Assembly: GCA_050012795.1 (NCBI GenBank)
Contig: JBEKGM010000006.1
Span: forward strand, 27,626 to 91,625
DNA length: 64,000 bases
Origin: Candidatus Bathyarchaeia archaeon
GTDB lineage: Archaea; Thermoproteota; Bathyarchaeia; 40CM-2-53-6
Reading direction: 5' to 3'
Below are positions 26,402 through 54,582 of this stretch, piece after piece. Both the position numbers and the translations under genes were made by a program. Within the stretch, counting starts at the first letter, position 1. Each line of letters begins with the position of its first letter. Below the pieces are notes generated by a model. That model searched no databases. It was given only the letters and a program-made list of their open reading frames with translations, and had not been told where the DNA came from.

Positions 26402-27418
26402 TCATTTCGTCTTCATTTCGTGATGAATTGTTATTGCTCGCTTTTTCTCAGCAGATTCACGCGCTGCTAACGCAACCTGAAGGGCGGCATGACCTTCTTC
26501 AACCGAGACAGGTGAATTTCCACCTTTTGAGACATAGTCACAGAATCCCTGGATTTCGCTTCTGTAGGCTTCCGCGAACCTTTCGATGAACCATGGACAC
26601 GGCTGCTTCGTGGCCCCCTGTCCTCTCCAGAGTTCCATCGACTCCTTTCTCAGATTATCAACATGGACCGCACCCTGGTCGCCCAGAACTTCGGTTCTTA
26701 GGTCGTACCCGTATCTAGAAGTCCGGCTTCCCTCAACGACGCCCAAACCGCCGTTTCTAAATCTCAAGACGGCGACGGCATTGTCAAAGTCGCCATATTT
26801 CGCGAACTGAGGATAAACTAGTGTTGTTCCCGTCGCCCAGACCTGCTCCACTTCACTGTTCATGAACCAGAGTGCTATGTCGATGTCGTGTATGCATTCA
26901 TCTACGAAAATGCCTCCGCTTCGTCGAATATACTCCTCTGGAGGAGGCTGTGGGTCGCGCGCGCAAGTTTTGACCAAGATCGGTTTGCCGATCCTGCCCT
27001 TCGCAATCATCTTCTTCGCCTTGCTGTATCCTAAATCAAACCGTCTGTTGAAACCAAGTTGGAACTTGACTCGAGATCGTCGGACTGCTGAAACAATCTT
27101 ATCTGCCTGATTCAAATTGAGTGCTATCGGTTTTTCAAGGAGCATAGGTACATTTCTCTCAGAAGCTAATTCTACATGTTCCGTATGCATTTGGGTGGGC
27201 GTCGCGATAACTACACCGTCCAGTGATTCCTCTCTCAGCATCTTGATTGGGGTCTCATACATGCGGCATTCCAATTTTTTCGCTGTGGCGCTTGCTAACT
27301 TCTTTATCGGATCAGCAACAGCGATCAACTCAGCTTTCTCTGTGCTTGCGCGGATGTTGGCTGCATGTAAGTATCCAATACGTCCCACTCCCCAGACTCC
27401 AATTCCAAGCCGTCTCAA
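26402..27418 (-). CDS. Gfo/Idh/MocA family oxidoreductase (inositol-2-dehydrogenase-like)
   Basis: LGIGVWGVGRIGYLHA Rossmann segment and LLEKPIA motif. 338 aa. Confidence 0.8.
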   Translation of the reverse strand: MRRLGIGVWGVGRIGYLHAANIRASTEKAELIAVADPIKKLASATAKKLECRMYETPIKMLREESLDGVVIATPTQMHTEHVELASERNVPMLLEKPIALNLNQADKIVSAVRRSRVKFQLGFNRRFDLGYSKAKKMIAKGRIGKPILVKTCARDPQPPPEEYIRRSGGIFVDECIHDIDIALWFMNSEVEQVWATGTTLVYPQFAKYGDFDNAVAVLRFRNGGLGVVEGSRTSRYGYDLRTEVLGDQGAVHVDNLRKESMELWRGQGATKQPCPWFIERFAEAYRSEIQGFCDYVSKGGNSPVSVEEGHAALQVALAARESAEKKRAITIHHEMKTK

Positions 27419-27494
27419 TCTATGACGCCACCGAAGGTGTGAACTGAGGACATGAGATAAGTTAAGGACTACTGATGTTACGCCAATCTACGAC

Positions 27495-27526
27495 AGAAAA
27501 ATGGCTAGGAGTGACCGATCCTAGCC
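27495..27526 (-). terminator. Stem-loop plus T-tract overlapping the SBP1 stop codon
   Basis: GGCTAGGA (27503-27510) pairs with TCCTAGCC (27519-27526) across an 8-nt loop. On the coding (minus) strand it is followed by ATTTTTCTG. Confidence 0.4.
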
Positions 27527-29425
27527 GTTCACGAATGTGACTGTGTTGAAGATTACCGTTGAGCTGATCGCTGTGAATATGGGGTCAAGCAGCGCGCTTT
27601 TGACGACGCCCTTTTGCCAGGCTACTGATCCCCCTCCGAATACGAGTTTGACGGTGCCCAACCATATGTATGGTGCGTCATTGTACATTTGTAGCTGCGC
27701 TGCGGTACACACTTGTTTAATGTAATTTACGTCAGCGGTGGCTGTCCAAGCGTCAACGCATTTCTGAACTGTAGGGTTTCCGTAGATTGCCCAGTCATTT
27801 GCAGGAGTATTGTAGTTCGCGAACAATATCCAAGCGTCTGCCGGAGTAGCTGCCCCTGGCGCAAATGTTCCAGTTCCGAACCATGATAGTTGAGCGACCT
27901 GCTGAGCCACCGCAAGTCCAGCCTGGTAGGAGCTCGCACCAGCAATATACGGCAACGTGTATTGACTACCAGGGGTCACCTCAATGGTCACCGTAATTCC
28001 GATTTGACCCAAGTCTGCCTGAACTACTTGCGCAGCTGAAATACAGTACGTGCAGCCTGCAACAACTCTGAATTCGAGCGGCGCCATCGTTGCCACGTTC
28101 ACTCCGGACTCTTTCAGGTACTGCTGGGCCAGAGTCAAATTGTACTGGTAGGGCGGTAGGTTGCCGAGGTCATACCAATCCTTCTGCGCAGGATATTCAG
28201 GTCCTATCATTGGACCCAACTGGCCGAAGAACACTCTTTGCGAGATATCGGTTACGTTTACGGCGTGAACGATCGCTTGCCTGAAAGCGGTTATGTTGGT
28301 TGGGTACCGATGCGTATTCATGGCCATTCCAACAAACACCATCGAGGCGTCCGGCATGACGGAGTATGAATACTTGTCAGGATTCGCCAAGACCAGCGGC
28401 CAATTCTGTGATTGAATTGCCGATATCTGCGCCGCGCCCGTAGATAGATCAGTATATCTAGCTACGTCATCTGGTTTTACGTTGATGACAACGTTCTTGA
28501 CATGACCCGGGTCCAAATACGGGTTCGCTTGAATATCAGCGGGGGCCAGACTCTTTCCCCAGTAGTTTGGATTTTGTGTGAATCTAACGTATGACCCTTC
28601 CACGACCGTAGTTACGGTATAGGGGCCGGTGCCGGGCATGGGATGTTGGTTAAAGTTCGTGTTGTACCCAGCAGGTGTACCGAAACCACCGTTTTGCAGA
28701 ACGTACTGTGTGTCGAACAGTAGCCCGACATAGGCAACTAGGATGTGCGGCAACCAACGAAACGGTGCCTTCAGTTGGAACACTAGCTGGTTTGGGCCGG
28801 TAACGTATATCGGCCACGAACTATCGCTCATAATCTTCATCAGATCTGGTGTCGGGTTGATGAGACCACTCTGCGTCATCAACGCAAGCGTTGCTGGACC
28901 GAACGAGACGTTTGTGAAGTTGAATACGTTGTATGCATTCAGGAAGCTTGAGCTGTTTCCGGACAGATAGTAGAGTCCGTACATTTGACCCCAAACTTGG
29001 TATGCGTTGAACGGGTCACCATTCGAGAAGGTCACGTTCTGTCTAAGATTGAAAGTGTAGGTTGTTCCGTCTGGTGACACTGTCCAGCTACTCGCTAGCA
29101 CAGGAAGAATCTGAATATCGCCAGTCTGGTACAACAAGCTTCCGTTCAGGGTGACCAGCGGCTGGTATACTGTGTAGGCACACCAGTTTGGATAAGGTAT
29201 TTCTCCAAGTGAACTGAGCTGGTTCAGATCACCGCTCGGCCAGAACGCGTCATCTATTGTAAGAGTTTCAGGGGCGGCTGACGCCGAAGAAGATGTCATA
29301 GTACTACTAATGACCGAAGAGGGCTGGCTCGGTTGTGATACGAAATATAGCCCTACCCCGGCTACAACAATAATAATTAAAACCAAAAGTGCGGCAGTAG
29401 TCCTAGCTATCGCTTTAGTGTTCAT
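27521..29425 (-). CDS. ABC transporter substrate-binding protein, family 5 (Opp/Dpp/Nik type), paralogue 1
   Basis: N-terminal TM anchor plus a Ser-rich linker, then a family-5 SBP body. Closely similar to the ORFs at 37550 and 41492. Start moved to MNTKAIARTT (ATG 29425-29423), because a conserved TATA-containing motif lies inside the longer track ORF. Confidence 0.8.
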   Translation of the reverse strand: MNTKAIARTTAALLVLIIIVVAGVGLYFVSQPSQPSSVISSTMTSSSASAAPETLTIDDAFWPSGDLNQLSSLGEIPYPNWCAYTVYQPLVTLNGSLLYQTGDIQILPVLASSWTVSPDGTTYTFNLRQNVTFSNGDPFNAYQVWGQMYGLYYLSGNSSSFLNAYNVFNFTNVSFGPATLALMTQSGLINPTPDLMKIMSDSSWPIYVTGPNQLVFQLKAPFRWLPHILVAYVGLLFDTQYVLQNGGFGTPAGYNTNFNQHPMPGTGPYTVTTVVEGSYVRFTQNPNYWGKSLAPADIQANPYLDPGHVKNVVINVKPDDVARYTDLSTGAAQISAIQSQNWPLVLANPDKYSYSVMPDASMVFVGMAMNTHRYPTNITAFRQAIVHAVNVTDISQRVFFGQLGPMIGPEYPAQKDWYDLGNLPPYQYNLTLAQQYLKESGVNVATMAPLEFRVVAGCTYCISAAQVVQADLGQIGITVTIEVTPGSQYTLPYIAGASSYQAGLAVAQQVAQLSWFGTGTFAPGAATPADAWILFANYNTPANDWAIYGNPTVQKCVDAWTATADVNYIKQVCTAAQLQMYNDAPYIWLGTVKLVFGGGSVAWQKGVVKSALLDPIFTAISSTVIFNTVTFVNG

Positions 29426-29460
29426 ATAGATACAGGTCCACCTGGACGTGTGACGCGGAA

Positions 29461-29479
29461 AAAATATAAGCTTTCGCAC
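29461..29479 (-). promoter_or_regulatory. Putative BRE/TATA promoter of SBP1
   Basis: The minus strand reads GTGCGAAAGCTTATATTTT, with the TATA box about 38 nt upstream of the ATG. The motif is shared with the SBP2 and SBP3 upstream regions. Confidence 0.4.
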
Positions 29480-29758
29480 GGGTTAGTTGCGTTCACCACG
29501 TACTTTTGTCAAATTCCAAGGCGGTTGAACAAATTTGAAAGGAAGGGCCCCCGTATCGTCAGCAAATCTGCTCTAGTGACTTGAACTGAGCTGTTCTAAG
29601 AGGATTCACTCCACACTGTTTGGATACGTGAAAATCAGGAGTTATATGGCCCATCATCGACGTCGTGATGCTCACCAAGAGGTACCTATGAGTTTGCCCC
29701 TAACTCATGTTAGGCACGAAATTCTATTCTAGAAGCATCGCTCACAGGTAGCGACCTT

Positions 29759-31117
29759 CTACGACACGGCTTGCAGTGAATCTTGTGCCGCTTTCAGTGT
29801 CATGTCTATATCGTCCTCTGTGTGTGCGGTGGATACGAACATGTGTTGGTACTGTAGCGGGTGAACTAGGACCCCTCTCTTCAGCATCTCCCTATGATAA
29901 CGGGTGAATCGGGCCCCGTCGCATTCGAGAAACTCCCTGTAGTTTGTGATCTTCTTCAGCGAGGTGAAGTAGATTTGAACACCACACTGGGCCAGGCCTT
30001 GAACTATAGTTTGGGTTCCGCTCGCATCCGCGATCCGCTTAAGTCCATCCTGCAACTTCGTTCCGACTTTCCGAAGGTGCCTGTAGCAGGCTCCGTCGTT
30101 TGCCGTCAACTCCGTCAAGGTTGCGCATGCGGCAGCGCAGCAAAGTGGATTTCCATTGTACGTTCCCGCGTGCATGATGCTTCCTGGGCCGACTTCGTTG
30201 AAAATCTCCCTCCTTCCCGTTATCGCGGAAATTGGAAATCCTCCGCCTAGGGCCTTTCCGAAACAGGCCAAGTCGGCTTCTACGCCGAAATGTTCCTGGG
30301 CTCCTCCGGGAGCTAGTCTGAAACCGGTTATGACTTCATCAAAGATCAATAATACGCCATGCTTCGACGCGATCTCTCTAGCTGACTCGAGGTAGCCTTC
30401 GTTGGGGGGAGCAACCCCAATGTCCATTGAAACTGGTTCCATTATAATGGCAGCAAGTTCATGTTCGTGTAATCTAACGGTCTTCTCAAGTAGTTCTATA
30501 TTATTCCAGGGCAGGACTATCGTATTCTTTATCGTGTCATCAGGAATGCCTGGTCCAGCTCTCACCTTGTACGGAGACACTTCGGAGCCTAATGCGGACC
30601 GTGGAGAGCCAACGATGTTGAGTAGAACATAATCGTGAGCACCATGATAGTGGCCTTCGAATTTCACGATCTTGTCCTTACCAGTGTATCCCCTAGCGAT
30701 TCTTATTGCATGCATCGTAGCCTCGCCCCCCGTGCTAGAAAACCTGATCATTTCTGCGTTTGGAATAATCTCGTGAATCTTCTCTGCAAGTTTGATTTGA
30801 AGTTCATCAAGCATCGCGTACTGAACCCCCTTCTCCAATTGAGCCTTCACCGCCTCCAGAACGGAAGGGGGAGAATGCCCCAGGATCAGCGGACCAAAAC
30901 CGAGAAGATAATCCAAGTAGACATTATCATCTGCATCCCAGATTCTTGATCCTGCGCCCTTCTTGAAAGTCAACGGATATGGCTCGTATGTAGGGTAGCA
31001 TTGCGCATTCGAGCTCCCGCCACCGGGGATAAGTCGCTTAGCTCTAACAAAGGACTCCCAAGATCTGCGAGTGTTCAAACCTTCAACATACTCACGATAA
31101 TCATCGTTCGTGCTCAA
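29759..31117 (-). CDS. Class III PLP-dependent aminotransferase (HemL / glutamate-1-semialdehyde aminomutase-like)
   Basis: 452 aa with LIFDEVITGFRLAPGG and FGKALGGGFP (PLP-Lys context) typical of the HemL-like subgroup. Confidence 0.75.
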   Translation of the reverse strand: MSTNDDYREYVEGLNTRRSWESFVRAKRLIPGGGSSNAQCYPTYEPYPLTFKKGAGSRIWDADDNVYLDYLLGFGPLILGHSPPSVLEAVKAQLEKGVQYAMLDELQIKLAEKIHEIIPNAEMIRFSSTGGEATMHAIRIARGYTGKDKIVKFEGHYHGAHDYVLLNIVGSPRSALGSEVSPYKVRAGPGIPDDTIKNTIVLPWNNIELLEKTVRLHEHELAAIIMEPVSMDIGVAPPNEGYLESAREIASKHGVLLIFDEVITGFRLAPGGAQEHFGVEADLACFGKALGGGFPISAITGRREIFNEVGPGSIMHAGTYNGNPLCCAAACATLTELTANDGACYRHLRKVGTKLQDGLKRIADASGTQTIVQGLAQCGVQIYFTSLKKITNYREFLECDGARFTRYHREMLKRGVLVHPLQYQHMFVSTAHTEDDIDMTLKAAQDSLQAVS

Positions 31118-31266
31118 TTGACTTCAAGCAGAGGGGTTAACGCCCGCTTAAAAGCCTCATCAATTCTCGTGATTAAACCGGTTGACTGGGAAACTCACTT
31201 GGGAGTTACGATTAGCATAAACTCGAACACGATGATGGTCGTCAATCATCCAAAGAGTATTAAGAA

Positions 31267-32727
31267 ATGAAGGAATCTGCTACGACGTGTAACCAGATGA
31301 AATTAACCGGTAGCATTCTTTCTCACGATGAGATTGTTGAGCTTGATAGGGCGTCAATGAAGGTCCTCTCCGAGGTTGGAGTTCTTGTCGCCAGTGAAAG
31401 GGCCCTGAAACTATTGGATGCTGCTGGTGCCCAGATCGATTATGTTAAGGAGATTGCAAAGATCTCGGAAGACTTGGTGCGAAAGTCCATCTCTTCGGCA
31501 ACTTCGACACCTCTTGAGATGTTCGATAGGACAGGGACCTCCTCCATCCGACTCGAAGGAAAACACACGTACAATATAACAGGCTTCGACGCGATATACA
31601 CGCTTGACTCCGAAACGGGAGAGCGACGTCCCTCCACCAAACGTGATGATGAGGAGTTCGGTAGGATTGCTGACGCTTTACCTAACATTGCTGCCGTAGG
31701 CAATGAGGTGATTCCACAGGATGTGCCGGGAAGATCAGCGGAGCTTCATGCGGTTCAAGCCATACTCTGCAATACTTCAAAGCACTGCTTCTTCGCACCA
31801 TCGGAAGGTAAGGTTGCTCGGGCAGCTCTTGAGATGGTGAGGACTGCTTGCGGTAGAAGTGATCTTTCAACTAGAACGCCGGTTACTTTGCAGGCGTCAT
31901 CTACGGCTCCGCTTCGGTGGCAGAGGAAGGCGCTTGAGACCTTGATGGAGGCTGCCTCTGCAGGTGTCAATCTCAATCTGTTGCCTCAACCTATTGCTGG
32001 TTTGACTGCTCCTGTTACATTGGCTGGCGTATTGTTGTTGCAGACCGTAGAAACCTTAGTGGGTCTGGTTATTGCGCAGCTGGTTAGACCGGGGGTTCAT
32101 GTAATTTACGGATATTGCCCGACGACTCTCGACATGCACGAAGCAAATCCAGCTCTCACTGCTCCTGAGGGCGCGATTATGAGGATTGCGAGTGCGCAAG
32201 TGGCGAAGTATTATGGTCTGCCGTCTCTCTCATCAGATAACACAGACTCGCATGTCAACGATGAACAAACCGCTTGGGAGAAAGCCGCCATCTACCTGTC
32301 AATCTACTTGGCCGGAACAGACATCTCATTGGACATGGGAGTATTCTCAGGCGGATTAATCGCCAGTCGAGAACAACTCGTGATTGACAGCGAAATCCTA
32401 GGATATGTTGAACGAGTAGCTAGAGGTATGCAGATCAACGAGGGGACACTGGCGATTGATCTTGTCTCCAAGGTAGGACATGGCGGTAACTTCCTTAAAG
32501 AACCTCACACGCTGAAGCACTTCAAAGCCGAGCACTGGCTTCCTGAGATCTCCTCGCGCGCGGCGGTTGGAAGATGGTTGAAGAGGGGAGGCCATGATGT
32601 TGTGCAGTCAGCTAGAGAAAAGGCGAAGCGAATTCTCATTGAGCATCATCCGAATGAATTGCCCCGGGATACAATTGCTGAGTTGACACGGATACTCGAG
32701 CAATTTGAAGCGAGATCAGCACAGTGA
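31267..32727 (+). CDS. Trimethylamine methyltransferase (MttB) superfamily protein, pyrrolysine-free
   Basis: 486 aa uninterrupted ORF. MttB-type N-terminus (LSHDEIVELDRASMKVLSEVGVLV) and a C-terminal pattern typical of the family. No in-frame TAG. The start may be the internal MKLTGS (31297). Confidence 0.75.
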   Translation: MKESATTCNQMKLTGSILSHDEIVELDRASMKVLSEVGVLVASERALKLLDAAGAQIDYVKEIAKISEDLVRKSISSATSTPLEMFDRTGTSSIRLEGKHTYNITGFDAIYTLDSETGERRPSTKRDDEEFGRIADALPNIAAVGNEVIPQDVPGRSAELHAVQAILCNTSKHCFFAPSEGKVARAALEMVRTACGRSDLSTRTPVTLQASSTAPLRWQRKALETLMEAASAGVNLNLLPQPIAGLTAPVTLAGVLLLQTVETLVGLVIAQLVRPGVHVIYGYCPTTLDMHEANPALTAPEGAIMRIASAQVAKYYGLPSLSSDNTDSHVNDEQTAWEKAAIYLSIYLAGTDISLDMGVFSGGLIASREQLVIDSEILGYVERVARGMQINEGTLAIDLVSKVGHGGNFLKEPHTLKHFKAEHWLPEISSRAAVGRWLKRGGHDVVQSAREKAKRILIEHHPNELPRDTIAELTRILEQFEARSAQ

Positions 32728-32758
32728 TAATGATACGTAAGAGGCTCCAAATAGGAAG

Positions 32759-33415
32759 CTATGAACTCATCAGCTGCTTGAAAACGGCAACCGAATCGAC
32801 TGCGTTGTCGCTATAGCCATCTGCACCCATTTCCTTCGCTAGTTTGGGTGTGACGGCAGCTCCGCCAACAGCCACCTTTAGACCCCGCCGGATTCCATTC
32901 TTCTCTAACGCGTCAACTACGATCTTCTGTTCAGGGGCAGACGTGGTGAGTAGGGATGACATGGCGATTATGTGGGGCTTCTCTTCCTTAACTTTCTCTA
33001 GGAATCTTTCCGGAGGCACATCTACACCTAGGTCCTTAACGTCAAACCCCGCCGCTTCGAGCATGACGATGACGAGGTTCTTTCCCATGTCATGGATATC
33101 CCCACGAACTGTGCCAATCACCACAATCCCCGTTGCTTTCCGCTCTAACCTTTGCGCCGCCAGAAGCGGTCGAAAAACCTCAATACCTGCTTTCATTGCC
33201 TCTGCTGCCAAAACGAGTTCCATGACGAAGGCTTCGCCAGCTTCAAACTTGTCTCCTATTTCGCGTATGCCCTTGGAGAGCCCATTCTCAATCGCCTCGA
33301 CTGGATTGACTCCGAGTCGAACTGCCTCCTCGGCAGTTGCCCGCGCGCTATCGACGTCCAAGTTGACCACCGCGTTTCTTAGCTCTTCAATGATATTGGA
33401 GTTGGAGCTCACCAA
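32759..33415 (-). CDS. Corrinoid (cobalamin-binding) methyl-carrier protein
   Basis: 218 aa with a cap domain plus GDIHDMGKNLV...MSSLLTTS...VAVGGA. It lies 75 nt downstream of the OppF-like gene on the same strand. Confidence 0.85.
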   Translation of the reverse strand: MVSSNSNIIEELRNAVVNLDVDSARATAEEAVRLGVNPVEAIENGLSKGIREIGDKFEAGEAFVMELVLAAEAMKAGIEVFRPLLAAQRLERKATGIVVIGTVRGDIHDMGKNLVIVMLEAAGFDVKDLGVDVPPERFLEKVKEEKPHIIAMSSLLTTSAPEQKIVVDALEKNGIRRGLKVAVGGAAVTPKLAKEMGADGYSDNAVDSVAVFKQLMSS

Positions 33416-33490
33416 GAATACACTTCGCTCAGTCTTGCCTTCTTACGGATATCACTCTTGTGTCTAGTTGCAATCTCAGTCTTTGAATCT

Positions 33491-34486
33491 CTACGCAGTC
33501 TTCTCGACAAAGTGACATGCGACAAAGTGCCCTGGCGACAGCTCGGCGAGAGATGGATTATCTTTCGTGCACACTGATTCAGCAAATGGGCATCTGGGGT
33601 TGAATCTGCATCCGGGGGGTGGGTTGATGGCGCTGGGAACTTCCCCCTTAATTTCTGCCTGTAACAGGTTTCGCCGTTCGGGGTCAGGAATCGGAGCGGA
33701 TGTGATTAGCGCGATCGTGTATGGGTGTCTAGGCTTAGTGACGACTGTTCTTGTCGGGCCGTACTCAACCAGCGAGCCAGCATACATTACTGCCATGGTG
33801 TCTGACATGTACTGAGCGACGGCTATGTTGTGCGTGATGAGCATGTAAGAAAGTTCATACTGCTTTTGAAGTTCGAGGAGAAGTCTGAGGATTTGGGCTT
33901 GAACCGATGCATCGAGCGCGCTTGTAGGTTCATCGAGGATGACAAGTCTAGGTTGCGTTGAAATTGCTCTGGCTATTGCAACTCTCTGCTTCTGGCCTCC
34001 GCTTAATTGTCTTGGAGGGCGTGTGGAGAAATCTTCCGATAATCCAACAGCCAGTAGACTTCTCTTGACTGCATCACGTACTACGTCCTTGCTCCATCCC
34101 ATAAGGCCATGTAGAGGTTCCGCGATCGATTCACCAACCTTCATTCGTGGGTCTAGTGAAGATTCGGGGTCTTGGAAGACCATTTGCATGTTCCGGTAGA
34201 GTTCAGTTCTGGAAATGCTCCCTTTCGTTATCTCTTTTCCACCGAAGTAAATGCGTCCGCTAGTTGGTGGAGTCATGAGGGCTACTGTTCTCGCCAGAGT
34301 TGTTTTTCCGCACCCGGACTCCCCTACGACGGCTACTGTTTTCCCTTTGGGGATACTAATGCTGACCCCGTCAACGGCTCGGACGAATTTGTCTTGAGCG
34401 TGGGAGAAGGGGTTCAGTCCTCTCCGGATTGGAAAGTACTTCTTCAGGTCCTGCGTGCTCAAGACAGAGTCTATTTCACTGGCCAT
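33491..34486 (-). CDS. ABC transporter ATP-binding protein (OppF/DppF-like)
   Basis: Walker A GESGCGKTT, signature LSGGQKQR, Walker B LVILDEPTS and the Opp C-terminal extension with Cys motifs. Confidence 0.85.
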   Translation of the reverse strand: MASEIDSVLSTQDLKKYFPIRRGLNPFSHAQDKFVRAVDGVSISIPKGKTVAVVGESGCGKTTLARTVALMTPPTSGRIYFGGKEITKGSISRTELYRNMQMVFQDPESSLDPRMKVGESIAEPLHGLMGWSKDVVRDAVKRSLLAVGLSEDFSTRPPRQLSGGQKQRVAIARAISTQPRLVILDEPTSALDASVQAQILRLLLELQKQYELSYMLITHNIAVAQYMSDTMAVMYAGSLVEYGPTRTVVTKPRHPYTIALITSAPIPDPERRNLLQAEIKGEVPSAINPPPGCRFNPRCPFAESVCTKDNPSLAELSPGHFVACHFVEKTA

Positions 34487-35543
34487 ATAGGAAACACGAC
34501 ACCTTACGGTTCTGGTCTATAGCTAGCTCTGGCGGTCTCTTCGTTCCGCAAACTTGCATGACGCGCGGACATCTTGGAGCAAACTTGCATCCTACCGATC
34601 GAACGCCTAGATCTGGGAGTGTCCCTGCTATTGCATGAAGCTCGCTATCTTCCTTGAATCCGGATGGAATGCATGAAAGTAACCCGCTTGTATACGGGTG
34701 AAGTGGTTTAGAGAAGATGCCGTGCACATCAGCATCTTCAGCAATCTCACCCGCGTACATCACAATTACCCTGTCAGCGACCTGACTCGCCACTGCTAGG
34801 TCATGCGTTACGAGCAGAATACTCGTTCGCACTTTCCTGATGAGTTCTTTCATCAGTTTCAGGACTTGAGCTTGAGTGGTCACATCCAATGCGGTCGTCG
34901 GTTCATCCGCGATCAATAATGCGGGTTCTTGTGACAACGCCATTGCAATCATTACTCGTTGCGTCATTCCACCGGAAAGTTCGAAGGGATATCGATCTAG
35001 CACTTGTTCAGGGTCAGGGATTCTGACCAGCTTCAGGTACTCGATGACCTCGTTCCTCAACTCTGAAGGAATCTTCCTCCTCCAATTCAAGGCAGGGAAT
35101 TTCGAAGGTTTCGCTGATGAGTTCTTCGTGTATGCCTCCTGCATTACCGTACTGGATACCTTATGTCCCCTCTTTCTTGCTTCGCGGACCATAATTGCTT
35201 CCGCGATCTGTTCCTCAACTCTATAGACAGGGCTAAGGCTTGTTAATGGTTCTTGGAAGATCATGGCGACCTCGGTGCCCCTGTACTCTCTAATCTTGCC
35301 CCCGCTCAGTTTGAGAAGGTCTGTCCCTTTGTATTGAACTGACCCGGTCACTTTTGCAGTCTTCTTCGGGAGCAGTCCGATCACTGAAAGGCCTAGGGTG
35401 GATTTCCCGCAACCGGACTCGCCGACGACGGCTAGGAACTCGTCTTGTCTCAGTTCAATGCTGATATTGTCGACTGCGGTTATTCTTTTCGAATAGGTCT
35501 CGTAATCGACGGTTAAGTTTTCTATGCTGAGGAGTGATCCCAT
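34476..35543 (-). CDS. ABC transporter ATP-binding protein (OppD/DppD-like)
   Basis: Walker A GESGCGKST, LSGGMTQR and LLIADEPTT. It overlaps both neighbouring genes. Confidence 0.85.
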   Translation of the reverse strand: MGSLLSIENLTVDYETYSKRITAVDNISIELRQDEFLAVVGESGCGKSTLGLSVIGLLPKKTAKVTGSVQYKGTDLLKLSGGKIREYRGTEVAMIFQEPLTSLSPVYRVEEQIAEAIMVREARKRGHKVSSTVMQEAYTKNSSAKPSKFPALNWRRKIPSELRNEVIEYLKLVRIPDPEQVLDRYPFELSGGMTQRVMIAMALSQEPALLIADEPTTALDVTTQAQVLKLMKELIRKVRTSILLVTHDLAVASQVADRVIVMYAGEIAEDADVHGIFSKPLHPYTSGLLSCIPSGFKEDSELHAIAGTLPDLGVRSVGCKFAPRCPRVMQVCGTKRPPELAIDQNRKVSCFLYGQ

Positions 35544-36424
35544 TAAGTTGCCTCCTCGAGCGCGTCCCTAAGGCCGTCACCAAGTAGACTGAAGCCTATG
35601 ACTAGAAGTGCAATTACCATGCCTGGAATTACAGGCAACCAAGGGGCTATGATTAGATATTCCTGTGAGGTGCTGATCATTTCACCCAGGTCTGGGAACG
35701 GTGGCCTGACGGATAGGCCGAGGTAGCTTAGGCCAGCGTAAGTGAGAACGACTGTGGCAACGTCTAGAGTTGCGTACACTAGCAGCGTAATGGAGATGTT
35801 TGGTAGAACATGCTTTAGGATGATCGCACCTGTCCTCTGCCCTGCGAATTTTGCTGCCTCAATGTAGTTCTGGTGTGAGACCCGCAATGCCTCTCCTCGG
35901 GCTACGCGCGCATAAGGAGGCCACCAAATAACCATCAGAGCAATCATCATGTGAGTTAAACCAGGTCCTAGAGCCACCGCGATCACCATGGCGATGACTA
36001 GTGCGGGCAATGCGAAAATCACGTCAGTGAATCTCATTAGCAGTTCATCAAAGAGTCCGCCCTTGAAAGCAGCCACTGAGCCTATCAGGGCGCCGATAGA
36101 GATAGCGACTGCGACAACTGTGAAACTTGCCAAAAGCCCGTTAGGTATGCTCGCTAGAACTCTACTAAACACGTCCCGACCGAGAAAATCGACACCGAAC
36201 GGGTGGGCCATGGTTGGAGAACCTAGAGACGGGCCCACGTTTTGTTGAAGTGGATTATAGGGCGTAATCGTGATTTTCAGATAATTCGCTACCGTCACGG
36301 CGACGGCTAAGGAGACGTAAACAGCGACGATTACGATTCCGATTATCGACTCTTTGTTTCTGAATAGCACTGATGTGCTTCTGCGGAAACTGGAAGAGAC
36401 TGGTGTGGCTTTTTCCTTGTTCAA
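35543..36424 (-). CDS. ABC transporter permease (OppC/DppC-like)
   Basis: 293 aa, 6 TM segments and an EAA-like loop (YIEAAKFAGQRTGAIILKHVLPN). Confidence 0.85.
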   Translation of the reverse strand: MNKEKATPVSSSFRRSTSVLFRNKESIIGIVIVAVYVSLAVAVTVANYLKITITPYNPLQQNVGPSLGSPTMAHPFGVDFLGRDVFSRVLASIPNGLLASFTVVAVAISIGALIGSVAAFKGGLFDELLMRFTDVIFALPALVIAMVIAVALGPGLTHMMIALMVIWWPPYARVARGEALRVSHQNYIEAAKFAGQRTGAIILKHVLPNISITLLVYATLDVATVVLTYAGLSYLGLSVRPPFPDLGEMISTSQEYLIIAPWLPVIPGMVIALLVIGFSLLGDGLRDALEEAT

Positions 36425-36433
36425 GATTGAATG

Positions 36434-37456
36434 TCATCCCAGTCTAACTTGAGGATCAACTACTGCATACATGATGTCCGCTACTAAGTTGGCTACTACA
36501 ATCACCAATGCGAAGACTATGGTTGTACCAAGTATTCCAGGGTAGTCTTGTCCATTCAATGCCTGTACTACGTAACGGCCCATTCCTGGGTACGAGAACA
36601 CGTTCTCGACGAAAATAGTACCAGTGATCAGCCAGGTGACAACCAAAGACGAGAGGGAAACTACAGGGATGAGGGCATGCCTCAGGCCATGCTTGTAGAA
36701 TACGGTGTTCTCGTCCAGACCTTTGGCTCGCGCGGTTCGAATATAGTTCGCGTGCATGATATCCAACAGCGAGCTTCGCAGAACTCGGGTTACGATTCCG
36801 AACGTGACCAGGGTTAACGCTGCGCTGGGAAGGATCACGTGCTGCAGTGAGCTGGTGAAGTATGGAATGTTGCCTTCCAGCAAGCTATCCAGCATCGGGA
36901 GACCGGTTATCCAAGTTGGAGCGGTTAAGGAAGGATCGTATGCGCCTCCGCTCGGCAATAGACCTAAGGAGAAAGTGAAAACGATGAGGAGAACTAGCGC
37001 TATGAAGAAGGGTGGTGACGCATAACCAGTTAAGTAGACCGCTCGAATCGCATCATCAATTGGCGTGTGATTGTACCTAGCTGAAACCACGCCTAAGAGG
37101 ACGCCGAGTGCCAGGCTTGCTACGATAGCGAAGATGGCGATTTGCAGCGTGTACGGTAAAGTTTGCGCAATCACCGTTGAGACGGGTAGAAAATTCCTTG
37201 AGGGTGAGTACCCGAGATTTCCCTGAAACAGGTTAACCAGATAATAATAGTACTGAACGTACACGGGGTCGTTCAAATGATACTTCTTAATGTACGCTTG
37301 TGCCAGTTCGGGATGCATCCCCGCCGCCTTTCCGATCCAAGCGTAGATCGGATCACCGCCAAGACTGTGCGAAAGAACAAACGTAATCGTCATTACGCTT
37401 AGCAGTACAAAGATGCCAAAGAGTGCACGTCGGAGTATGTACTTTGCCAAATTCAT
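36434..37456 (-). CDS. ABC transporter permease (OppB/DppB-like)
   Basis: 340 aa with a typical N-terminus (YILRRALFGIFVLLSVMTITFVL) and EAA loop (YIRTARAKGLDENTVFYKHGLRHALIP). Confidence 0.85.
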   Translation of the reverse strand: MNLAKYILRRALFGIFVLLSVMTITFVLSHSLGGDPIYAWIGKAAGMHPELAQAYIKKYHLNDPVYVQYYYYLVNLFQGNLGYSPSRNFLPVSTVIAQTLPYTLQIAIFAIVASLALGVLLGVVSARYNHTPIDDAIRAVYLTGYASPPFFIALVLLIVFTFSLGLLPSGGAYDPSLTAPTWITGLPMLDSLLEGNIPYFTSSLQHVILPSAALTLVTFGIVTRVLRSSLLDIMHANYIRTARAKGLDENTVFYKHGLRHALIPVVSLSSLVVTWLITGTIFVENVFSYPGMGRYVVQALNGQDYPGILGTTIVFALVIVVANLVADIMYAVVDPQVRLG

Positions 37457-37490
37457 TTGTTTGGTCTGCTACCTCAACTTGACAGTTTTG

Positions 37491-37538
37491 TGTCGCATAA
37501 AACCGTTCGCTCCCCGTTCTAGGTTGGGGAGTGAACGG
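37491..37538 (-). terminator. Intercistronic 13-bp stem-loop plus T4 between SBP2 and the permease gene (attenuator / mRNA-stabilising element)
   Basis: CCGTTCGCTCCCC (37503-37515) pairs with GGGGAGTGAACGG (37526-37538) at 12/13 positions plus one wobble, with a 10-nt loop. On the minus strand it is followed by TTTTATG. Confidence 0.5.
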
Positions 37539-37549
37539 CGCGATCATTT

Positions 37550-39451
37550 CTAGCTGCCGACGAATGTTACTGTGTTGAAGATGACAGTTGAGCTGATCCC
37601 GGTATAGACCGGGTCAAGGTACCCACCGCTGACCACGCTCTTCTGCCAAGCTACTGAACCGCCTCCGAATACCAGCTTTATTGATCCTAACCAGATGTAG
37701 GGTGCGTCATTGTACATTTGAAGTTGGGCTGCTGTGCACAGCTGTTTGATCTGGTTCACATCGTTAGTAGAGGTCCAAGCATCCACACATTTCTGAACGA
37801 TTGGATTGGCGTAGATTGCATAGTCATTTGCGGGTGTATTCTGATTCGCGAAGAGTATCCAAGCGTCAGCTGGTGTGACTGCACCAGGCGCAAATGTTCC
37901 CGTACCGAACCAGGTCAGCTGTGACACTTGCTGTGCAACTGCCAGTCCTGCCGAATAGGAACCAGCTCCTGCTACATAGGGCAGCGTGTATTCGCTACCG
38001 GGAATTACCGCGATGTTCACTGTAATGCCAACTTGGGAGAGGTCTGACTGAACTATTTGAGCGGCTGAGATACAATAGGTGCAGCCAGCTACCACTCGAA
38101 AGTCTATGGGTGTCGTGGCCACATTAACTCCGGACGCGGTGATGTATTGCTGTGCTAGCGTCAAGTTGTACTGGTACTGTGGCAAGTTCCCAAGATCGTA
38201 GAAGTCCTTCTGCGCTGGATATTCGGGTCCGATCATGGGTGCCAATCCATTGAAGAATGCTCGTGCAGATATGTCTGTTAGGTTGACTGCGTGAACTATT
38301 GCCTGTCTGAAAGCAGTAATGTTGGTGGGGTAGCGGTGGGTATTCATTGCAATTCCCACGAACGCCATGGAAGCATCGGGCATGAGTGCATATCCATACT
38401 TGTCAGGGTTAGCAAGAACTAGAGGCCAGTTCTGACTTTGGATTCCTGCAATTTGTGCAGCACCAGTTGATAGGTCGGTGTATCTGGCTACGTCGTCTGG
38501 TTTGTAGTATACGATAACATTCTTCACGTGACCTGGGTCCAAGTACGGGTTCGCTTGAATATCAGCCGCCGACAAGCTGCTTGCCCAGTAGGTTGGGTTC
38601 TGAGTGAACTTTACGAAGGAACCTTCTGAAACGTCAGTAACGACGTAAGGTCCAGTTCCAGGGATCGGTTTCTGGTTGAATGCGGTGTTCAGAGCGGCAG
38701 GGGTTCCGAATCCACCGTTCTGTAGCACGTACTGAGTATCGAATATGAGACCAACGAAGGCTACTAAGATTTGAGGGAAGTATGCGAATGGAGCCTTGAG
38801 GTGGAAAACGATCTGGTATGGACTGGTTACGTAGATAGGCCATGAACTGTCACTCATGATGCTTAGCAAAGCTGGAGTCGGATTGGCGAGTCCACTTTGA
38901 GTCATGAGTGCAATTGTGGCTGGGCCGAAGTTGGCTTTGGACATATCGAAGACGTTGTATGCGTTGAGGAAACTGGAACTGTTTCCGGTCAGGTAAGCTA
39001 GGCCGTACATTTGTCCCCATACTTGATAGGAATTGAAGGGATCACCGTTTGAGAATGTAACGTTCTGTCTTAGGTTGAATGTGTATGTGGTGCCGTCGCT
39101 TGAAACCGACCAGTCCGTAGAGAGCATGGGGAGTATCTGAACGGTGCCCGGTCCATACTCCGCAGAAGCGTTTGTAGTAACAAGTGACTGGTAAACCGTG
39201 TATGTTAACCAATCAGGGTATGGTATAGCTTGCGGTGAAGTTAACTGATTAAGATCACCGCTGGGCCAGAACGCGTCGTCAATCACTAGGGTGTCACGCA
39301 TAGCAGCAGCGCTGGACGTCGGCATCATAGTAGTAGTTGCAGAAGGTGACGTAGTCTGAGTTGCGAAGTATACTCCGGCGGCCGCTATGACAATTATCAG
39401 GATAATAACAACGGCGATAACAGGTTTCTTAGCTCGAGATGTAGTGCTCAT
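37550..39451 (-). CDS. ABC transporter substrate-binding protein, family 5, paralogue 2 (first gene of the transporter operon)
   Basis: Same architecture as paralogues 1 and 3. Start moved to MSTTSRAKKP (ATG 39451-39449), because the TATA motif lies 23 nt upstream, inside the longer track ORF. Confidence 0.8.
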   Translation of the reverse strand: MSTTSRAKKPVIAVVIILIIVIAAAGVYFATQTTSPSATTTMMPTSSAAAMRDTLVIDDAFWPSGDLNQLTSPQAIPYPDWLTYTVYQSLVTTNASAEYGPGTVQILPMLSTDWSVSSDGTTYTFNLRQNVTFSNGDPFNSYQVWGQMYGLAYLTGNSSSFLNAYNVFDMSKANFGPATIALMTQSGLANPTPALLSIMSDSSWPIYVTSPYQIVFHLKAPFAYFPQILVAFVGLIFDTQYVLQNGGFGTPAALNTAFNQKPIPGTGPYVVTDVSEGSFVKFTQNPTYWASSLSAADIQANPYLDPGHVKNVIVYYKPDDVARYTDLSTGAAQIAGIQSQNWPLVLANPDKYGYALMPDASMAFVGIAMNTHRYPTNITAFRQAIVHAVNLTDISARAFFNGLAPMIGPEYPAQKDFYDLGNLPQYQYNLTLAQQYITASGVNVATTPIDFRVVAGCTYCISAAQIVQSDLSQVGITVNIAVIPGSEYTLPYVAGAGSYSAGLAVAQQVSQLTWFGTGTFAPGAVTPADAWILFANQNTPANDYAIYANPIVQKCVDAWTSTNDVNQIKQLCTAAQLQMYNDAPYIWLGSIKLVFGGGSVAWQKSVVSGGYLDPVYTGISSTVIFNTVTFVGS

Positions 39452-39473
39452 GGAAAGAGGCTTGGTAATTTCG

Positions 39474-39490
39474 CATATAACACTTTGCAG
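39474..39490 (-). promoter_or_regulatory. Putative BRE/TATA promoter of the SBP2-ABC-corrinoid operon
   Basis: The minus strand reads CTGCAAAGTGTTATATG. The 13-nt CTGCAAAGTGTTA is identical to the SBP3 upstream motif. The TATA box sits about 23 nt from the ATG, implying a leaderless or very short leader transcript. Confidence 0.45.
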
Positions 39491-41491: not shown

Positions 41492-43390
41492 TTAGCTCAC
41501 GAATGTGACCGTGTTGAAGATGGCGGTTGTAGATTGCGAGGTGAAATCTGGGTCCATAAGGAAGCCTTTGACGACGGTCTTATCCCAAACGACGGATCCT
41601 CCGCCAAACGCGAGTGTGGGGTTGCCTAGCCATATGTACGGGGCATCGTCGTAAACCTGCTTGTTCGCTGCAGTGCAAGCGACCTTGATTGCGGTCACGT
41701 CCGCGGTAGTGAACCACGAGTTGACGCAGTTGTCGACTATAGGGTTGCCATAGTTCGCGAAGTTGCCAGTAGGGCTCTTGGAATTCACAAACATCACCCA
41801 ACCGTCCGCAGGAGTAGGAGCCTCAGGTGCAAAGGTTGGAAAGCCCATCCACGCCAAGTGCGCCTCCTGCTGTGCGACTGGAATTGACGCGGAATATGAG
41901 GAGTACCCGGCCGTGTACGGGAGCGTCAATTCCGCAGGCGGGGTCACCTCGACTGTTACTGAGATACCGATTTGGCCGAGGTCGGCTTGAACTACTTGCG
42001 CTGCTGAAATACAACTGATGCACCCAGCGATAACCCTGAACTCGAGCGGTGCCATTGTTGCCACGTTCACACCGGATTCTTTCAAGTATTGTTGGGCCAG
42101 AGTCAAATTGTACTGGTAGGGGGGCAGGTCGCCAAGGTTGTAGAAGTCTTTCTCTGCTCGATACTCGGGACCGACCATGGGCACCATCGTATTGTAGTAA
42201 ACTTTCTGATTAACTTCGGTCACGTTCACGGCGTGTACGAGGGCCTGCCTGAAGGCAGTGATGTTGGTTGGATACCGCAGAGTGTTCATGCCGATACCTA
42301 CGACAATTAGAGCGTCATTCGGCATTTTGAAGTAATCATACTTGTCAGGGTTTGCGAGCACGAGTGGCCAACTCGTGTAAATCGAAGCAATCTGGGCGGT
42401 TCCCGTGGAGAGATCTGAATATCTTACGACGTCATCGCCTTTTGCGTAAACAATCACGTTCTTGACGTGTCCAGGGTCTACGTACGGGTTTGCTTGAATT
42501 TCGGCTGGGGTCAGGCTATTTCCCCAATAAGTCGGGTTCTGTGAAAACTTCTCAAAGGAACCTAACTCAAATCCAGTTGGGACGTATGGTCCCGTTCCTG
42601 GAATCGCATGCTGGTTGAAGTAAGTATTAATCGCAGTTGGAGTACCGAAGCCTCCGTTCTGGAGGATGTATTGCGTGTCCAGGATTAAGCCAACGTACAT
42701 GGTTAAGACTTGAAGCATCCACTTAAACGGAGACTTCAAGTGGAGTACGATTTGGCTCGGCCCAGTCACGTATATAGGCCACGTATTATCCATCATGATC
42801 TTCAGTAACTCTGGACTTGGGTTGATGACTCCGCTCTGGGTCATGAGCGCGACAGTAGCAGGACCGAACTTGACAGGTGACATGTCAAACACCTGGTAAC
42901 CGTTCATAAAGCTCGAACTATTCCCTGACAGGTAGTAGAACTCGTACAAGTCCCCCCACACTTGGTAAGCATTGAAGGGATCACCGTTCGAAAAAGTCAC
43001 ATTCTGTCTAAGGTTAAACGTGTAGACTGTACCATCCGGCGAAACTGTCCAATCAGTTGCGAGATCCGGCATTACTTGAGTAGTGTCACCAGTCGTGTAC
43101 ACTAAGCTACCATTTAGGGTGACAAGCGGTTGGTAAACCGTATAGTACCACCAGTCGCTGCCGACTATGTTCAACGTTGGAGGAATCGGATTGAGATCTG
43201 ACCCGGACCAGTAGATCTCATCTATGACTAGCGTGTCGTGAAGCGAACTCGACATGGTAGCACTAGTGGTAGTAGCCATCGGAGCGGTCGGTTGCATTGA
43301 GGAATACAGACCCACCCCTATACCGGCAATCACCACAATAATTACGATAAGAACGGCCGCGGTTGTTTTGGTTACCGCTTTACTTATCAT
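41492..43390 (-). CDS. ABC transporter substrate-binding protein, family 5, paralogue 3
   Basis: 632 aa with a TM anchor and Ser/Thr-rich linker. Long blocks are near-identical to paralogues 1 and 2 (e.g. TYTFNLRQNVTFSNGDPFNAYQVWG). Confidence 0.8.
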   Translation of the reverse strand: MISKAVTKTTAAVLIVIIVVIAGIGVGLYSSMQPTAPMATTTSATMSSSLHDTLVIDEIYWSGSDLNPIPPTLNIVGSDWWYYTVYQPLVTLNGSLVYTTGDTTQVMPDLATDWTVSPDGTVYTFNLRQNVTFSNGDPFNAYQVWGDLYEFYYLSGNSSSFMNGYQVFDMSPVKFGPATVALMTQSGVINPSPELLKIMMDNTWPIYVTGPSQIVLHLKSPFKWMLQVLTMYVGLILDTQYILQNGGFGTPTAINTYFNQHAIPGTGPYVPTGFELGSFEKFSQNPTYWGNSLTPAEIQANPYVDPGHVKNVIVYAKGDDVVRYSDLSTGTAQIASIYTSWPLVLANPDKYDYFKMPNDALIVVGIGMNTLRYPTNITAFRQALVHAVNVTEVNQKVYYNTMVPMVGPEYRAEKDFYNLGDLPPYQYNLTLAQQYLKESGVNVATMAPLEFRVIAGCISCISAAQVVQADLGQIGISVTVEVTPPAELTLPYTAGYSSYSASIPVAQQEAHLAWMGFPTFAPEAPTPADGWVMFVNSKSPTGNFANYGNPIVDNCVNSWFTTADVTAIKVACTAANKQVYDDAPYIWLGNPTLAFGGGSVVWDKTVVKGFLMDPDFTSQSTTAIFNTVTFVS

Positions 43391-43413: not shown

Positions 43414-43429
43414 ACTTAACACTTTGCAG
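43414..43429 (-). promoter_or_regulatory. Putative promoter motif of SBP3
   Basis: The minus strand reads CTGCAAAGTGTTAAGT, sharing the 13-nt core with the SBP2 promoter. Confidence 0.4.
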
Positions 43430-53754: not shown

Positions 53755-54582
53755 ATGCGTTTTTCCTTCGTAGTCTCCAGTGGACTTGGGTACAGGATTC
53801 AAGACCTCTTTCATAGTGAATCATCCTTCAAAGAATTCGAGCAAGCTCTGCGAACCATCAAGGAACATGGGTTCGAGGGCGTTGAGCTTAACATCAGCTT
53901 CGACGACCAGAGCAAGCTTAGTCGAATCAAGGCGGCAATAGATACCTCCGGACTGAAACTGGCAGCCGTTGGAACCGGCATGGTGTACGTTAGGGAACGA
54001 CTCTCTTTAACCGATACCGATCCCGAGAAACGTTCAAAGGCGCTTGCAATTGTGAAAAACCTGATCCGCTTTGCTTCTCTCGAGCAGGCAGTACTAATAA
54101 TTGGAATGGTGAGAGGTTCTCCTTCACAACCCGACAAGGCAACTGACGATTACCTGCGTGAAGGCCTGAGAGAATGCGATAGAGAAGCGAAACAGAACAG
54201 GGTACGAATCGCGTTAGAGGCCATAAATAGGTATGAGACAAGTCTCCTCAACACAGCAGCTGACGCGTCCCACATAATTGATCAAGAGAAACTCACCGCC
54301 ACTGGTCTTCTCCTAGATACATTCCACATGAATATTGAAGAACAATCGATCGCCGATTCAATTCGAAACAACGCAACTAGAATAGTGCACTTCCACATAG
54401 CTGACAGCGACCGTTGGCCTCCGGGTCACGGACACCTGGAGATAGCTACATTGCTACGCATCCTAGAGGACTCAGGGTACGAAGGGTGGGTATCGACGGA
54501 AGCTCTACCAAACCCAAACAACTCACTAGCTGTAGCTCACACAGCCGAGTTTCTGAAAAGTCATAAACTCATGCGACCCTGA
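53755..54582 (+). CDS. Xylose-isomerase-like TIM-barrel protein
   Basis: 275 aa with GFEGVEL, ALEAINRYET, LLLDTFHMNIEE and VHFHIADS...PGHGHLE. Confidence 0.75.
   Translation: MRFSFVVSSGLGYRIQDLFHSESSFKEFEQALRTIKEHGFEGVELNISFDDQSKLSRIKAAIDTSGLKLAAVGTGMVYVRERLSLTDTDPEKRSKALAIVKNLIRFASLEQAVLIIGMVRGSPSQPDKATDDYLREGLRECDREAKQNRVRIALEAINRYETSLLNTAADASHIIDQEKLTATGLLLDTFHMNIEEQSIADSIRNNATRIVHFHIADSDRWPPGHGHLEIATLLRILEDSGYEGWVSTEALPNPNNSLAVAHTAEFLKSHKLMRP

Follow-up and report, generated by a model that had tools for sequence, protein, structure and literature searches.

A 64,000-nucleotide stretch of contig JBEKGM010000006.1 from a Candidatus Bathyarchaeia archaeon (assembly GCA_050012795.1, positions 27,626 to 91,625), referred to here as the window, carries genes for a methyltransferase of the MttB superfamily and for a corrinoid protein next to those of an Opp-type ATP-binding cassette (ABC) importer. 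The whole locus sits within a cyclitol (inositol) catabolic island of ~33 kb, at about 21.9 to 55.9 kb. We put at about even the chance that this system takes its methyl group from an imported N-methylated compound rich in hydroxyl groups. The reading draws on the altered substrate pocket of the methyltransferase, on the inositol clusters in which relatives of the importer are found, and on an insertion block that holds the methyltransferase module together with a binding protein of the importer.

The importer genes lie on the minus strand and encode, in order, the family-5 solute-binding protein (SBP; SBP_bac_5) SBP2 (37550-39451; the open reading frame [ORF] extends to 39493), an OppB-type (36434-37456) and an OppC-type permease (35543-36424), both of the BPD_transp_1 family, and the OppD-type (34476-35543) and OppF-type (33491-34486) ATPases, each with ABC_tran and oligo_HPY domains; the corrinoid protein gene (32759-33415, minus strand; B12-binding_2 and B12-binding) follows, and all six were assigned by Pfam and NCBIfam matches. 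The set of a family-5 binding protein, two BPD_transp_1 permeases and two oligo_HPY ATPases is complete for an Opp/Dpp-type (PepT family) ABC importer. On the plus strand, the MttB homologue (31267-32727; MT1, the MttB-superfamily methyltransferase) converges on the corrinoid gene across a gap of 31 nt and is divergent from a class III aminotransferase resembling glutamate-1-semialdehyde aminomutase (29759-31117, minus strand). OppC and OppD share nucleotide 35543 (a 1-nt overlap), OppD and OppF overlap by 11 nt (34476-34486), and the remaining gaps are 9 nt between OppB and OppC, 93 nt between SBP2 and OppB, and 75 nt between OppF and the corrinoid gene. This gene order, with its overlaps and gaps, had been given in a first-pass annotation of the window and holds throughout in the ORF coordinates, apart from small corrections of start codons; the HemL-like aminotransferase divergent from MttB, named there too, is confirmed by its match to NF000818. 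SBP2 most likely starts at ATG 39451, where gene callers place the start in relatives, which gives a protein of 633 amino acids (aa) that carries a membrane anchor at the N terminus and a linker rich in Ser and Thr. For the corrinoid gene, the conserved GTG at 33412 is the probable start, and the second ATG at 31297 may be an alternative start for MttB.

The MttB homologue matches PF06253 (MTTB/COG5598) with 307.8 bits against a cut-off of 25, its residues 16-475 aligning to positions 32-490 of the 500 in the profile. Its ORF has zero internal stops and terminates in TGA, and the protein aligns over its full length to the structures of MtgB (~30% identity) and MttB; it is therefore, as the first-pass annotation had it, a homologue free of pyrrolysine (Pyl). 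Its score against the Pyl-type equivalog TIGR02369, 389.7 bits, falls under the membership cut-off of 525. In MtgB, glycine betaine is held by Y97 and F356 through cation-pi contacts and by R312 and H348 at the carboxylate (PMC13080624). By alignment, Y97 corresponds to F107 in the window protein, which keeps the aromatic side chain, and R312, H348 and F356 are replaced by L321, D356 and G363, so that the carboxylate ligand pair of an MtgB-type glycine betaine methyltransferase is lost; these replacements agree with the earlier placing of the protein outside the glycine betaine type. The pair is absent throughout the clade to which the protein belongs, with L321 and G363 invariant and D/N at position 356 conserved. 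This clade is a discrete set of relatives at 58-93% identity, beyond which identities fall to 47% and <38%; among species-representative genomes it is limited to metagenome-assembled genomes (MAGs) of Ca. Bathyarchaeia, and near-identical copies come from peat and soil metagenomes. A bathyarchaeial lignin O-demethylase named "MtgB" (PMC10989822) was considered as a relative and set aside, being a protein of ~300 aa unrelated to the MttB family.

In the corrinoid protein, both Pfam domains score above their cut-offs and the DxHxxG motif is present as DIHDMG at residue 106, which are the features of a methylotrophic cognate corrinoid protein of the MttC/MtgC/MtbC type. Its top PDB match is MttC (7xcn_M, 172 bits), and it scores 200.5 bits against TIGR02370, slightly under the cut-off of 215.3.

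The island around the locus was overlooked in the first-pass annotation, as was the binding protein SBP1. When scored against the equivalog cut-offs of NF041097-NF041099 and TIGR04380, the minus-strand genes at 26402-27418, 45536-46645 and 47911-49176 encode, respectively, the inositol 2-dehydrogenase IolG (358.9 bits; cut-off, 355), the 3-dehydro-scyllo-inosose hydrolase IolN (318 bits; cut-off, 245) and the scyllo-inosose 3-dehydrogenase IolM (518 bits; cut-off, 450). On the plus strand lie a gene for an IolO-like 5-keto-L-gluconate epimerase (53755-54582; 239 bits, under the cut-off of 300) and one for a DegT/DnrJ/EryC1-family aminotransferase (54671-55915), of which an orthologue (65%) occurs in an iol cluster of Nitrososphaerales. 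With IolG, IolM and IolN as equivalogs and the IolO-like protein below its cut-off, we count the Thermotoga-type inositol pathway as present. Further enzymes of the island are three more GFO/IDH/MocA dehydrogenases, four xylose-isomerase-like TIM barrels, a PfkB kinase, a Cgl0159-like aldolase and a pyrophosphate-dependent phosphofructokinase. The island holds one translocator and three paralogous family-5 binding proteins with 64-77% mutual identity: SBP2, SBP1 (27521-29425, minus strand), which is 77% identical to SBP2 and has no translocator of its own, and SBP3 (41492-43390, minus strand), which is 64-65% identical to the other two.

Homologues of SBP2 at 56-76% identity occur in hundreds of gene clusters, far outnumbering the MttB clade. 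In a Nitrososphaerales MAG (L022), the orthologous OppBCDF and family-5 binding protein genes lie inside a classical iol cluster with KduI/IolB, PfkB/IolC, an aldolase, Aldedh/IolA, the thiamine pyrophosphate enzyme IolD, an IolE-like TIM barrel, three GFO genes, a DegT aminotransferase and inositol-1-phosphate synthase, and with zero methyltransferases. In a related Bathyarchaeon (L021), iol genes (75-93% identical), a family-5 binding protein and OppBC flank two pairs of URO-D-family methyltransferase and corrinoid genes; in another relative (L076), the binding protein and OppBCDF are flanked by IolN, DegT and one corrinoid/URO-D pair. The transporter family was found inside iol clusters at no fewer than five independent loci (at least five). 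Because homologues lie in the inositol clusters of L022, L021 and L076, the importer family belongs to cyclitol metabolism, which suggests that it imports inositol-type compounds, and the sugar-like rather than peptide ligand proposed in the first-pass annotation gains from this setting. Judging by the same neighbourhoods, this importer family has repeatedly recruited corrinoid methyltransferase modules, which come from two unrelated families. One further MttB-family gene (32% identical; L077, 1444-2935) lacks ~90 N-terminal residues, abuts an IolM fragment and converges on the binding protein gene of an orthologous Opp operon; being truncated and probably the decayed remnant of another insertion, it was rejected as an independent MttB-Opp association, for which it is weak evidence. 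For a member of the MttB clade (P0024, 64%) and a family-5 binding protein (P0130, 75% to SBP2), the longest contig of the Joint Genome Institute is in both cases given as exactly 12,063 bp; the two may share that contig, and would then be an independent co-occurrence.

The comparison with L076 locates the methyltransferase module within the island. There, oppF (85% identical) is followed after ~150 nt by the orthologue of iolG (82%); in the window the same two genes are separated by ~6 kb (27419-33490) occupied by the corrinoid gene, MttB, the aminotransferase and SBP1. Because oppF adjoins iolG in L076, the block with SBP1 is a lineage-specific insertion or was lost in L076, and from this gene order the methyltransferase module was gained, or lost in L076, as one block together with the SBP paralogue. 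SBP1 comes with a TATA element of its own and with a T-run terminator, and it is our best candidate for the receptor of the methyl donor; earlier attention had gone to SBP2, and the binding protein most closely tied to the module is SBP1.

Among ~60 loci of the MttB clade, MttB converges on the corrinoid gene wherever the sequence is long enough to tell. OppF upstream of the corrinoid gene is found only in the subclade with at least 84% MttB identity, where Opp and a family-5 binding protein accompany the pair (the window, L011/L012/L024, L014, L020/L023, L025 and L063); within it, the layout OppF-corrinoid gene-MttB is kept across several diverged metagenomic lineages whose MttB proteins are 84-93% identical. 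The synteny search that the first-pass annotation had proposed as a check thus recovers the linkage of MttB, corrinoid protein and Opp importer in relatives, within this range of identity only. Two loci that seemed to be exceptions without OppF, L006 and L014, proved to be gene-calling artefacts at contig ends, the raw sequence containing the 3' end of OppF. At 75% identity, a family-1 binding protein, an aminotransferase and MttB stand in a row convergent on the corrinoid gene. At 63-67%, an APC permease is divergent from MttB, and a second MttB/corrinoid pair, a LarA-type racemase, an aminotransferase and a URO-D gene with a corrinoid gene are found; at 58-62%, the order is aminotransferase, APC permease and, after a gap of 61-111 nt, the corrinoid gene, convergent on MttB. 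The clade therefore adjoins some transporter in every subclade, whether an APC permease, a family-1 binding protein or Opp with a family-5 binding protein. An omega-type or glutamate-semialdehyde-aminomutase-like aminotransferase and polyol or sugar-acid enzymes are likewise encoded nearby in each subclade. Because the Opp and the APC subclades both have a transporter followed by the corrinoid gene, this layout has arisen with two non-homologous transporters.

Several details of these relatives deserve mention in their own right. In the 58-62% subclade (L051, 274-2620; L069; L048), the genes directly upstream of MttB encode a PdxA2-like dehydrogenase and a DtnK-like kinase for four-carbon acid sugars, and a GC-rich hairpin (GTGATGGGCGG...CCGCCCCATCAC) and a TATA-like element stand between the APC permease and the corrinoid gene. 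At ~12.2-20.2 kb of L007, L008, L016 and L018, a second MttB paralogue (33% identical) has its own corrinoid protein, together with a LarA-type 2-hydroxyacid (malate) racemase-like gene, a cupin, an aminotransferase, a hexulose-phosphate-synthase-like gene and a URO-D/corrinoid pair; by its predicted functions, this gene set resembles a multi-step route for a hydroxy-acid amine.

The switch of transporter has a counterpart in the methyltransferase itself. Between the ABC-linked proteins (the window type and the 75% relative) and the APC-linked subclade, 46 positions are discriminating, and 14 of the 46 fall within residues 320-362, the segments that bear the MtgB ligand positions (p of ~1e-5, or 4e-4 with a wider interval, the interval having been picked post hoc). 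This suggests that the substrate pocket changed together with the transporter.

On these grounds the following route can be proposed, in which we infer the class of substrate, the roles of the URO-D proteins and co-transcription from sequence. Inositol-type compounds would be imported by one OppBCDF translocator with three membrane-anchored binding proteins and degraded via IolG, IolM, IolN, the IolO-like enzyme, the kinase and the aldolase. SBP1, possibly SBP2 or SBP3, would deliver a hydroxyl-rich N-methylated compound of the ammonium type to OppBCDF; MttB would move one methyl group onto the Co(I) corrinoid protein, and a URO-D-family methyltransferase of the island would pass it to a C1 carrier. 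The aminotransferase would then take off the amino group, and the carbon skeleton would join the inositol or sugar-acid pathway. That a transporter next to an MttB-family gene can point to the substrate, as the first-pass annotation assumed, has precedents: in the opuD-mtgB-mtgC cluster the adjacent transporter imports the substrate (PMC6855144), and the mth cluster contains an EamA transporter (PMC12155760). The methylated amino-sugar or aminocyclitol suggested there fits the inositol pathway and the two aminotransferases, the compound itself being a guess. Of the earlier interpretation as a whole, an MttB system outside the betaines and BCCT transporters, tied to a family-5 sugar-like importer, is retained, and what it loses is the view of the corrinoid gene as simply a member of the importer operon.

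Of the three components of such a system, MT1 and the corrinoid protein are present in the window, and the candidate for the methyl-corrinoid:acceptor methyltransferase (MT2) is a URO-D-family protein. URO-D 2 (25171-26337, minus strand) is a candidate MT2, and its orthologue (54%) accompanies the MttB clade in distant relatives; URO-D 1 (21934-23151, minus strand) is a candidate MT2 or an O-demethylase-type MT1. Both are recognised by weak matches to the URO-D Pfam family (52-57 bits), have diverged strongly from one another and found no relatives in PDB sequence or NCBIfam searches. For want of such relatives and of a zinc motif, each may be an MT1 or an MT2.

As regards the expression of the corrinoid gene, the spacer between OppF and this gene shows no hairpin (z = +1.55) and no T5 run. 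It does contain the 14-nt block CACAAGAGTGATAT (33449-33462, minus strand), which is invariant in four lineages while the remaining spacer diverges and which lies 40 nt before the conserved GTG. The block is positionally homologous to an element, CAAG.C.AATA.T, found upstream of the corrinoid gene in relatives without Opp and present in all other subclades, including those with nothing, or with a hairpin-terminated permease gene, upstream; it probably serves the corrinoid gene as a promoter or operator of its own. A role as shared operator was rejected, since the block occurs once in the window and matches with up to three mismatches (<=3) are at chance level. Because the spacer has neither hairpin nor T5 run, read-through is plausible, and transcription from the Opp operon probably adds to the expression of the corrinoid gene. 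The proposal that this is the terminal gene of the importer operon is thus upheld in part at best: strand and lack of a terminator agree with it, and the promoter-like element of its own and the partnership with MttB in every relative do not. Of the two features that the first-pass annotation had named as refuting that proposal, a terminator and an independent promoter, only the second, as a promoter-like block, was found in the spacer.

Several points count against an imported N-methylated cyclitol-like donor. The corrinoid gene has its own conserved promoter-like block, and in the APC-type relatives a hairpin and this element split the transporter from the corrinoid gene; because of that block, adjacency need not mean one transcript. 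The Opp linkage is confined to one lineage, at MttB identities of at least 84%, and its conservation may mean recent common descent and nothing more. The binding proteins give little away about their ligand: a PDB sequence search gave at most 53 bits, a level that permits no inference, and when the SBP modelling that had been suggested was carried out, the AlphaFold model (predicted local distance difference test, 83) matched NikA, DppA, GsiB, AgaA, AccA and CntA in Foldseek, all with template modelling scores of ~0.65-0.7, so that the matches were spread about equally over unlike types of ligand. All six substrates known so far for the MttB superfamily are either trimethylamine or a small quaternary amine that bears an acidic group (PMC12155760), and the literature searched documents no abundant natural N-methylated cyclitol. 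In the domain scan of the window (ORFs of at least 150 aa), neither a pterin-type MT2 nor a RamA-type reductive activator was found; the reductive activase may be encoded elsewhere in the genome, outside the window. MtaA has a zinc site formed by a His-x-Cys ... Cys arrangement on the URO-D fold. The H.C motif is absent from both URO-D proteins of the island, and URO-D 2 has one Cys only, so that they lack the signature of MtaA/MtbA and are unlikely to be coenzyme M methyltransferases.

The most serious competitor, which we find possible and clearly the lesser of the two, is mere juxtaposition: the module would demethylate a common small quaternary amine, akin to betaine or carnitine, that enters through some other transporter, and would have landed at the end of the inositol-importer operon. 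The adjacency to Opp in a single lineage, the promoter-like element of the corrinoid gene and the small amines that make up the known substrates of the superfamily (PMC12155760) all suit this explanation, as does the use by the 58-67% relatives of an APC-family permease, a type typical for amino-acid-like organocations. However, the inserted block brings its own SBP1 paralogue and no other transporter; in the 75% relative, the aminotransferase-MttB-corrinoid unit stands beside another ABC binding protein; and the segments of the pocket are altered together with the transporter switch. The window does contain an APC permease (11651-13198), which was examined as an orthologue of the relatives' permease and rejected, the identity being 26% only.

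It is improbable, in our estimate, that MttB acts instead as an O-demethylase on O-methyl-inositols such as pinitol, ononitol or quebrachitol, with the inositol product feeding IolG. The inositol island, in which corrinoid methyltransferase modules of two unrelated families recur, would accommodate such a role, and so would a pocket that has lost the carboxylate ligands and in which Asp/Asn and other polar residues are invariant across the clade. The chemistry would be new to the superfamily: to our knowledge no MttB-family member cleaves an alkyl methyl ether. The clade is moreover tied to omega-type aminotransferases and mostly to APC permeases, which points to an amine, and the URO-D proteins are more natural candidates for O-demethylation.

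Nor do we expect, beyond a slight chance, that the aminotransferase is a true HemL supplying 5-aminolevulinate for corrinoid synthesis. It passes NF000818, the glutamate-1-semialdehyde 2,1-aminomutase (HemL) subfamily model, with 445.7 bits (cut-off, 398), and its closest structures are true glutamate-1-semialdehyde aminomutases (338 bits); however, it scores 434 bits against the hemL equivalog, below the cut-off of 527, it travels with MttB in the 75% relative, similar paralogues stand by permeases in the clade, and no other tetrapyrrole genes are close by. That Opp is an ordinary peptide or nickel importer and its neighbourhood meaningless is very improbable, since the NikA, Dpp and Opp proteins that are the best NCBIfam and PDB matches of its binding proteins and permeases are matched far below the family cut-offs (NikA, for instance, with 103 bits where 393 are required), the family recurs inside iol clusters, and archaeal and Thermotoga family-5 systems are known sugar importers.

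Returning to an imported N-methylated donor, the closest characterised systems differ from the locus in instructive ways. The MtgB/MtgC(/MtgA) systems of Desulfitobacterium hafniense and of Methanolobus vulcani (opuD-mtgB-mtgC) share with it a Pyl-free MT1 (~30% identity), a cognate corrinoid protein and a transporter gene; here the ligands R312, H348 and F356 are not conserved, an Opp-type ABC importer with family-5 binding proteins replaces the BCCT transporter, the MT2 candidate is a URO-D-family protein rather than the pterin-binding MtgA, and the module is embedded in an inositol pathway. The MthB/MthC/MthA/MthK phosphocholine system of Eubacterium limosum likewise combines an MT1, a corrinoid protein, a transporter and an accessory enzyme that modifies the substrate, and shows that the superfamily reaches beyond carboxylate betaines (PMC12155760). 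It has a bacterial host, tetrahydrofolate as acceptor, an EamA-type transporter and a kinase, whereas here an aminotransferase and uptake through an ABC importer with family-5 binding proteins are found. The inositol pathway of Thermotoga maritima has in common with the island the IolG, IolM and IolN equivalogs, an IolO-like epimerase and ABC uptake; the window adds an archaeal host, an Opp-type importer with three binding proteins, corrinoid methyltransferases and two aminotransferases. In the methoxydotrophic Mto and bacterial O-demethylase systems, the likeness consists of URO-D methyltransferases with a corrinoid protein, of an archaeon without methyl-coenzyme M reductase and of a methyl group presumably passed to tetrahydromethanopterin; here neither URO-D gene adjoins a corrinoid gene of its own, and the only corrinoid protein of the island is paired with MttB. 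The substrates of Mto and of the O-demethylases are aryl methyl ethers.

The moc genes of Sinorhizobium for the rhizopine 3-O-methyl-scyllo-inosamine provide for uptake by a binding protein, demethylation, a MocA-type dehydrogenase and a MocC-type TIM barrel. The window resembles this in outline, with four genes each of the GFO/IDH/MocA and xylose-isomerase-like families. Rhizopine is demethylated by the oxygen-dependent ferredoxin oxygenase MocDEF, whereas demethylation here would be anaerobic and cobalamin-dependent. A bolder claim, which we hold to be unlikely, is that the locus encodes a pathway for methylated (amino)cyclitols, the first to be anaerobic and cobalamin-dependent and the archaeal equivalent of rhizopine or methyl-inositol catabolism. 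The methyl donor would be brought in by a family-5 binding protein and an Opp-type translocator, and the MttB-superfamily enzyme would act on a non-acidic, polyhydroxylated N-methyl or even O-methyl substrate. Literature searches returned nothing on corrinoid-dependent demethylation of methyl-inositols or on Bathyarchaeia together with inositol and MttB, and no paper describing a linkage of the kind seen here. If the claim were true, the locus would connect plant-derived cyclitols with a non-methanogenic methylotrophy of Bathyarchaeia in peat.

Bathyarchaeia belong to the most abundant archaea of sediments and peat, and the many methyltransferase genes they carry are as a rule annotated as methylamine enzymes; this is how bathyarchaeial mttB and mtmB genes are interpreted at present (PMC10321748). 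Few substrates are known for the very large MttB superfamily, for which the locus would be a concrete case of a different substrate class and names the candidates: SBP1-3, MttB with the corrinoid protein, and the downstream IolG, IolM and IolN. More broadly, it points to an archaeal family of Opp-type importers dedicated to inositol-type compounds to which methyltransferase modules attach again and again.

Signals around the binding protein genes are of interest for the expression of the importer. A scan for sigma-70 promoters and intrinsic terminators gave counts equal to the shuffled expectation and is not meaningful for an archaeon; TATA-like elements with the B recognition element (BRE) and T-runs were used instead. 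Upstream of SBP2, motif and spacing identify the BRE/TATA-like element CTGCAAAGTGTTATAT (39475-39490, minus strand), whose TATA-like hexamer begins 29 nt before ATG 39451; the promoter motif noted earlier at this place stands, with these coordinates and upstream of the corrected start. A promoter-like block of SBP3 (43414-43429, minus strand) shares its first 13 nt (CTGCAAAGTGTTA) and the spacing to the ATG, which could reflect either duplication of promoter plus gene or a site for a shared regulator. The stem-loop already noticed between SBP2 and OppB is, by folding energy, a strong hairpin (37503-37539, minus strand; -31.3 kcal/mol, z = -3.84) followed by UUUUAU, and a probable attenuator or mRNA-stability element. 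Each of the three binding protein genes is followed by a hairpin and/or a T-run (27497-27501, 37503-37539 and ~41440, minus strand), and the binding proteins are probably expressed above the level of the translocator, or independently of it.

Elsewhere in the window, a Pyl-free homologue of MtmB (6337-7704; 455 aa; PF05369, 355.6 bits) and a second corrinoid protein (7786-8502), 47% identical to the first, are encoded by divergent genes, the former next to an oxygenase-like gene of the Rieske/VanA_C type (5246-6211). Among non-Pyl MtmB proteins, MtqB alone has been characterised, with tetramethylammonium and choline as its substrates (PMC13044021). A tRNA gene with one or more long intervening sequences lies at 59783-59893 (minus strand; Rfam, 40.5 bits) and was not called by ARAGORN. 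It agrees with an archaeal origin of the DNA, as do the membrane-anchored binding proteins with their Ser/Thr linkers and the TATA-type promoters. Near the end of the window, a HEPN/AbiV-domain protein (62150-62662, plus strand) is encoded by a possible abortive-infection defence gene.

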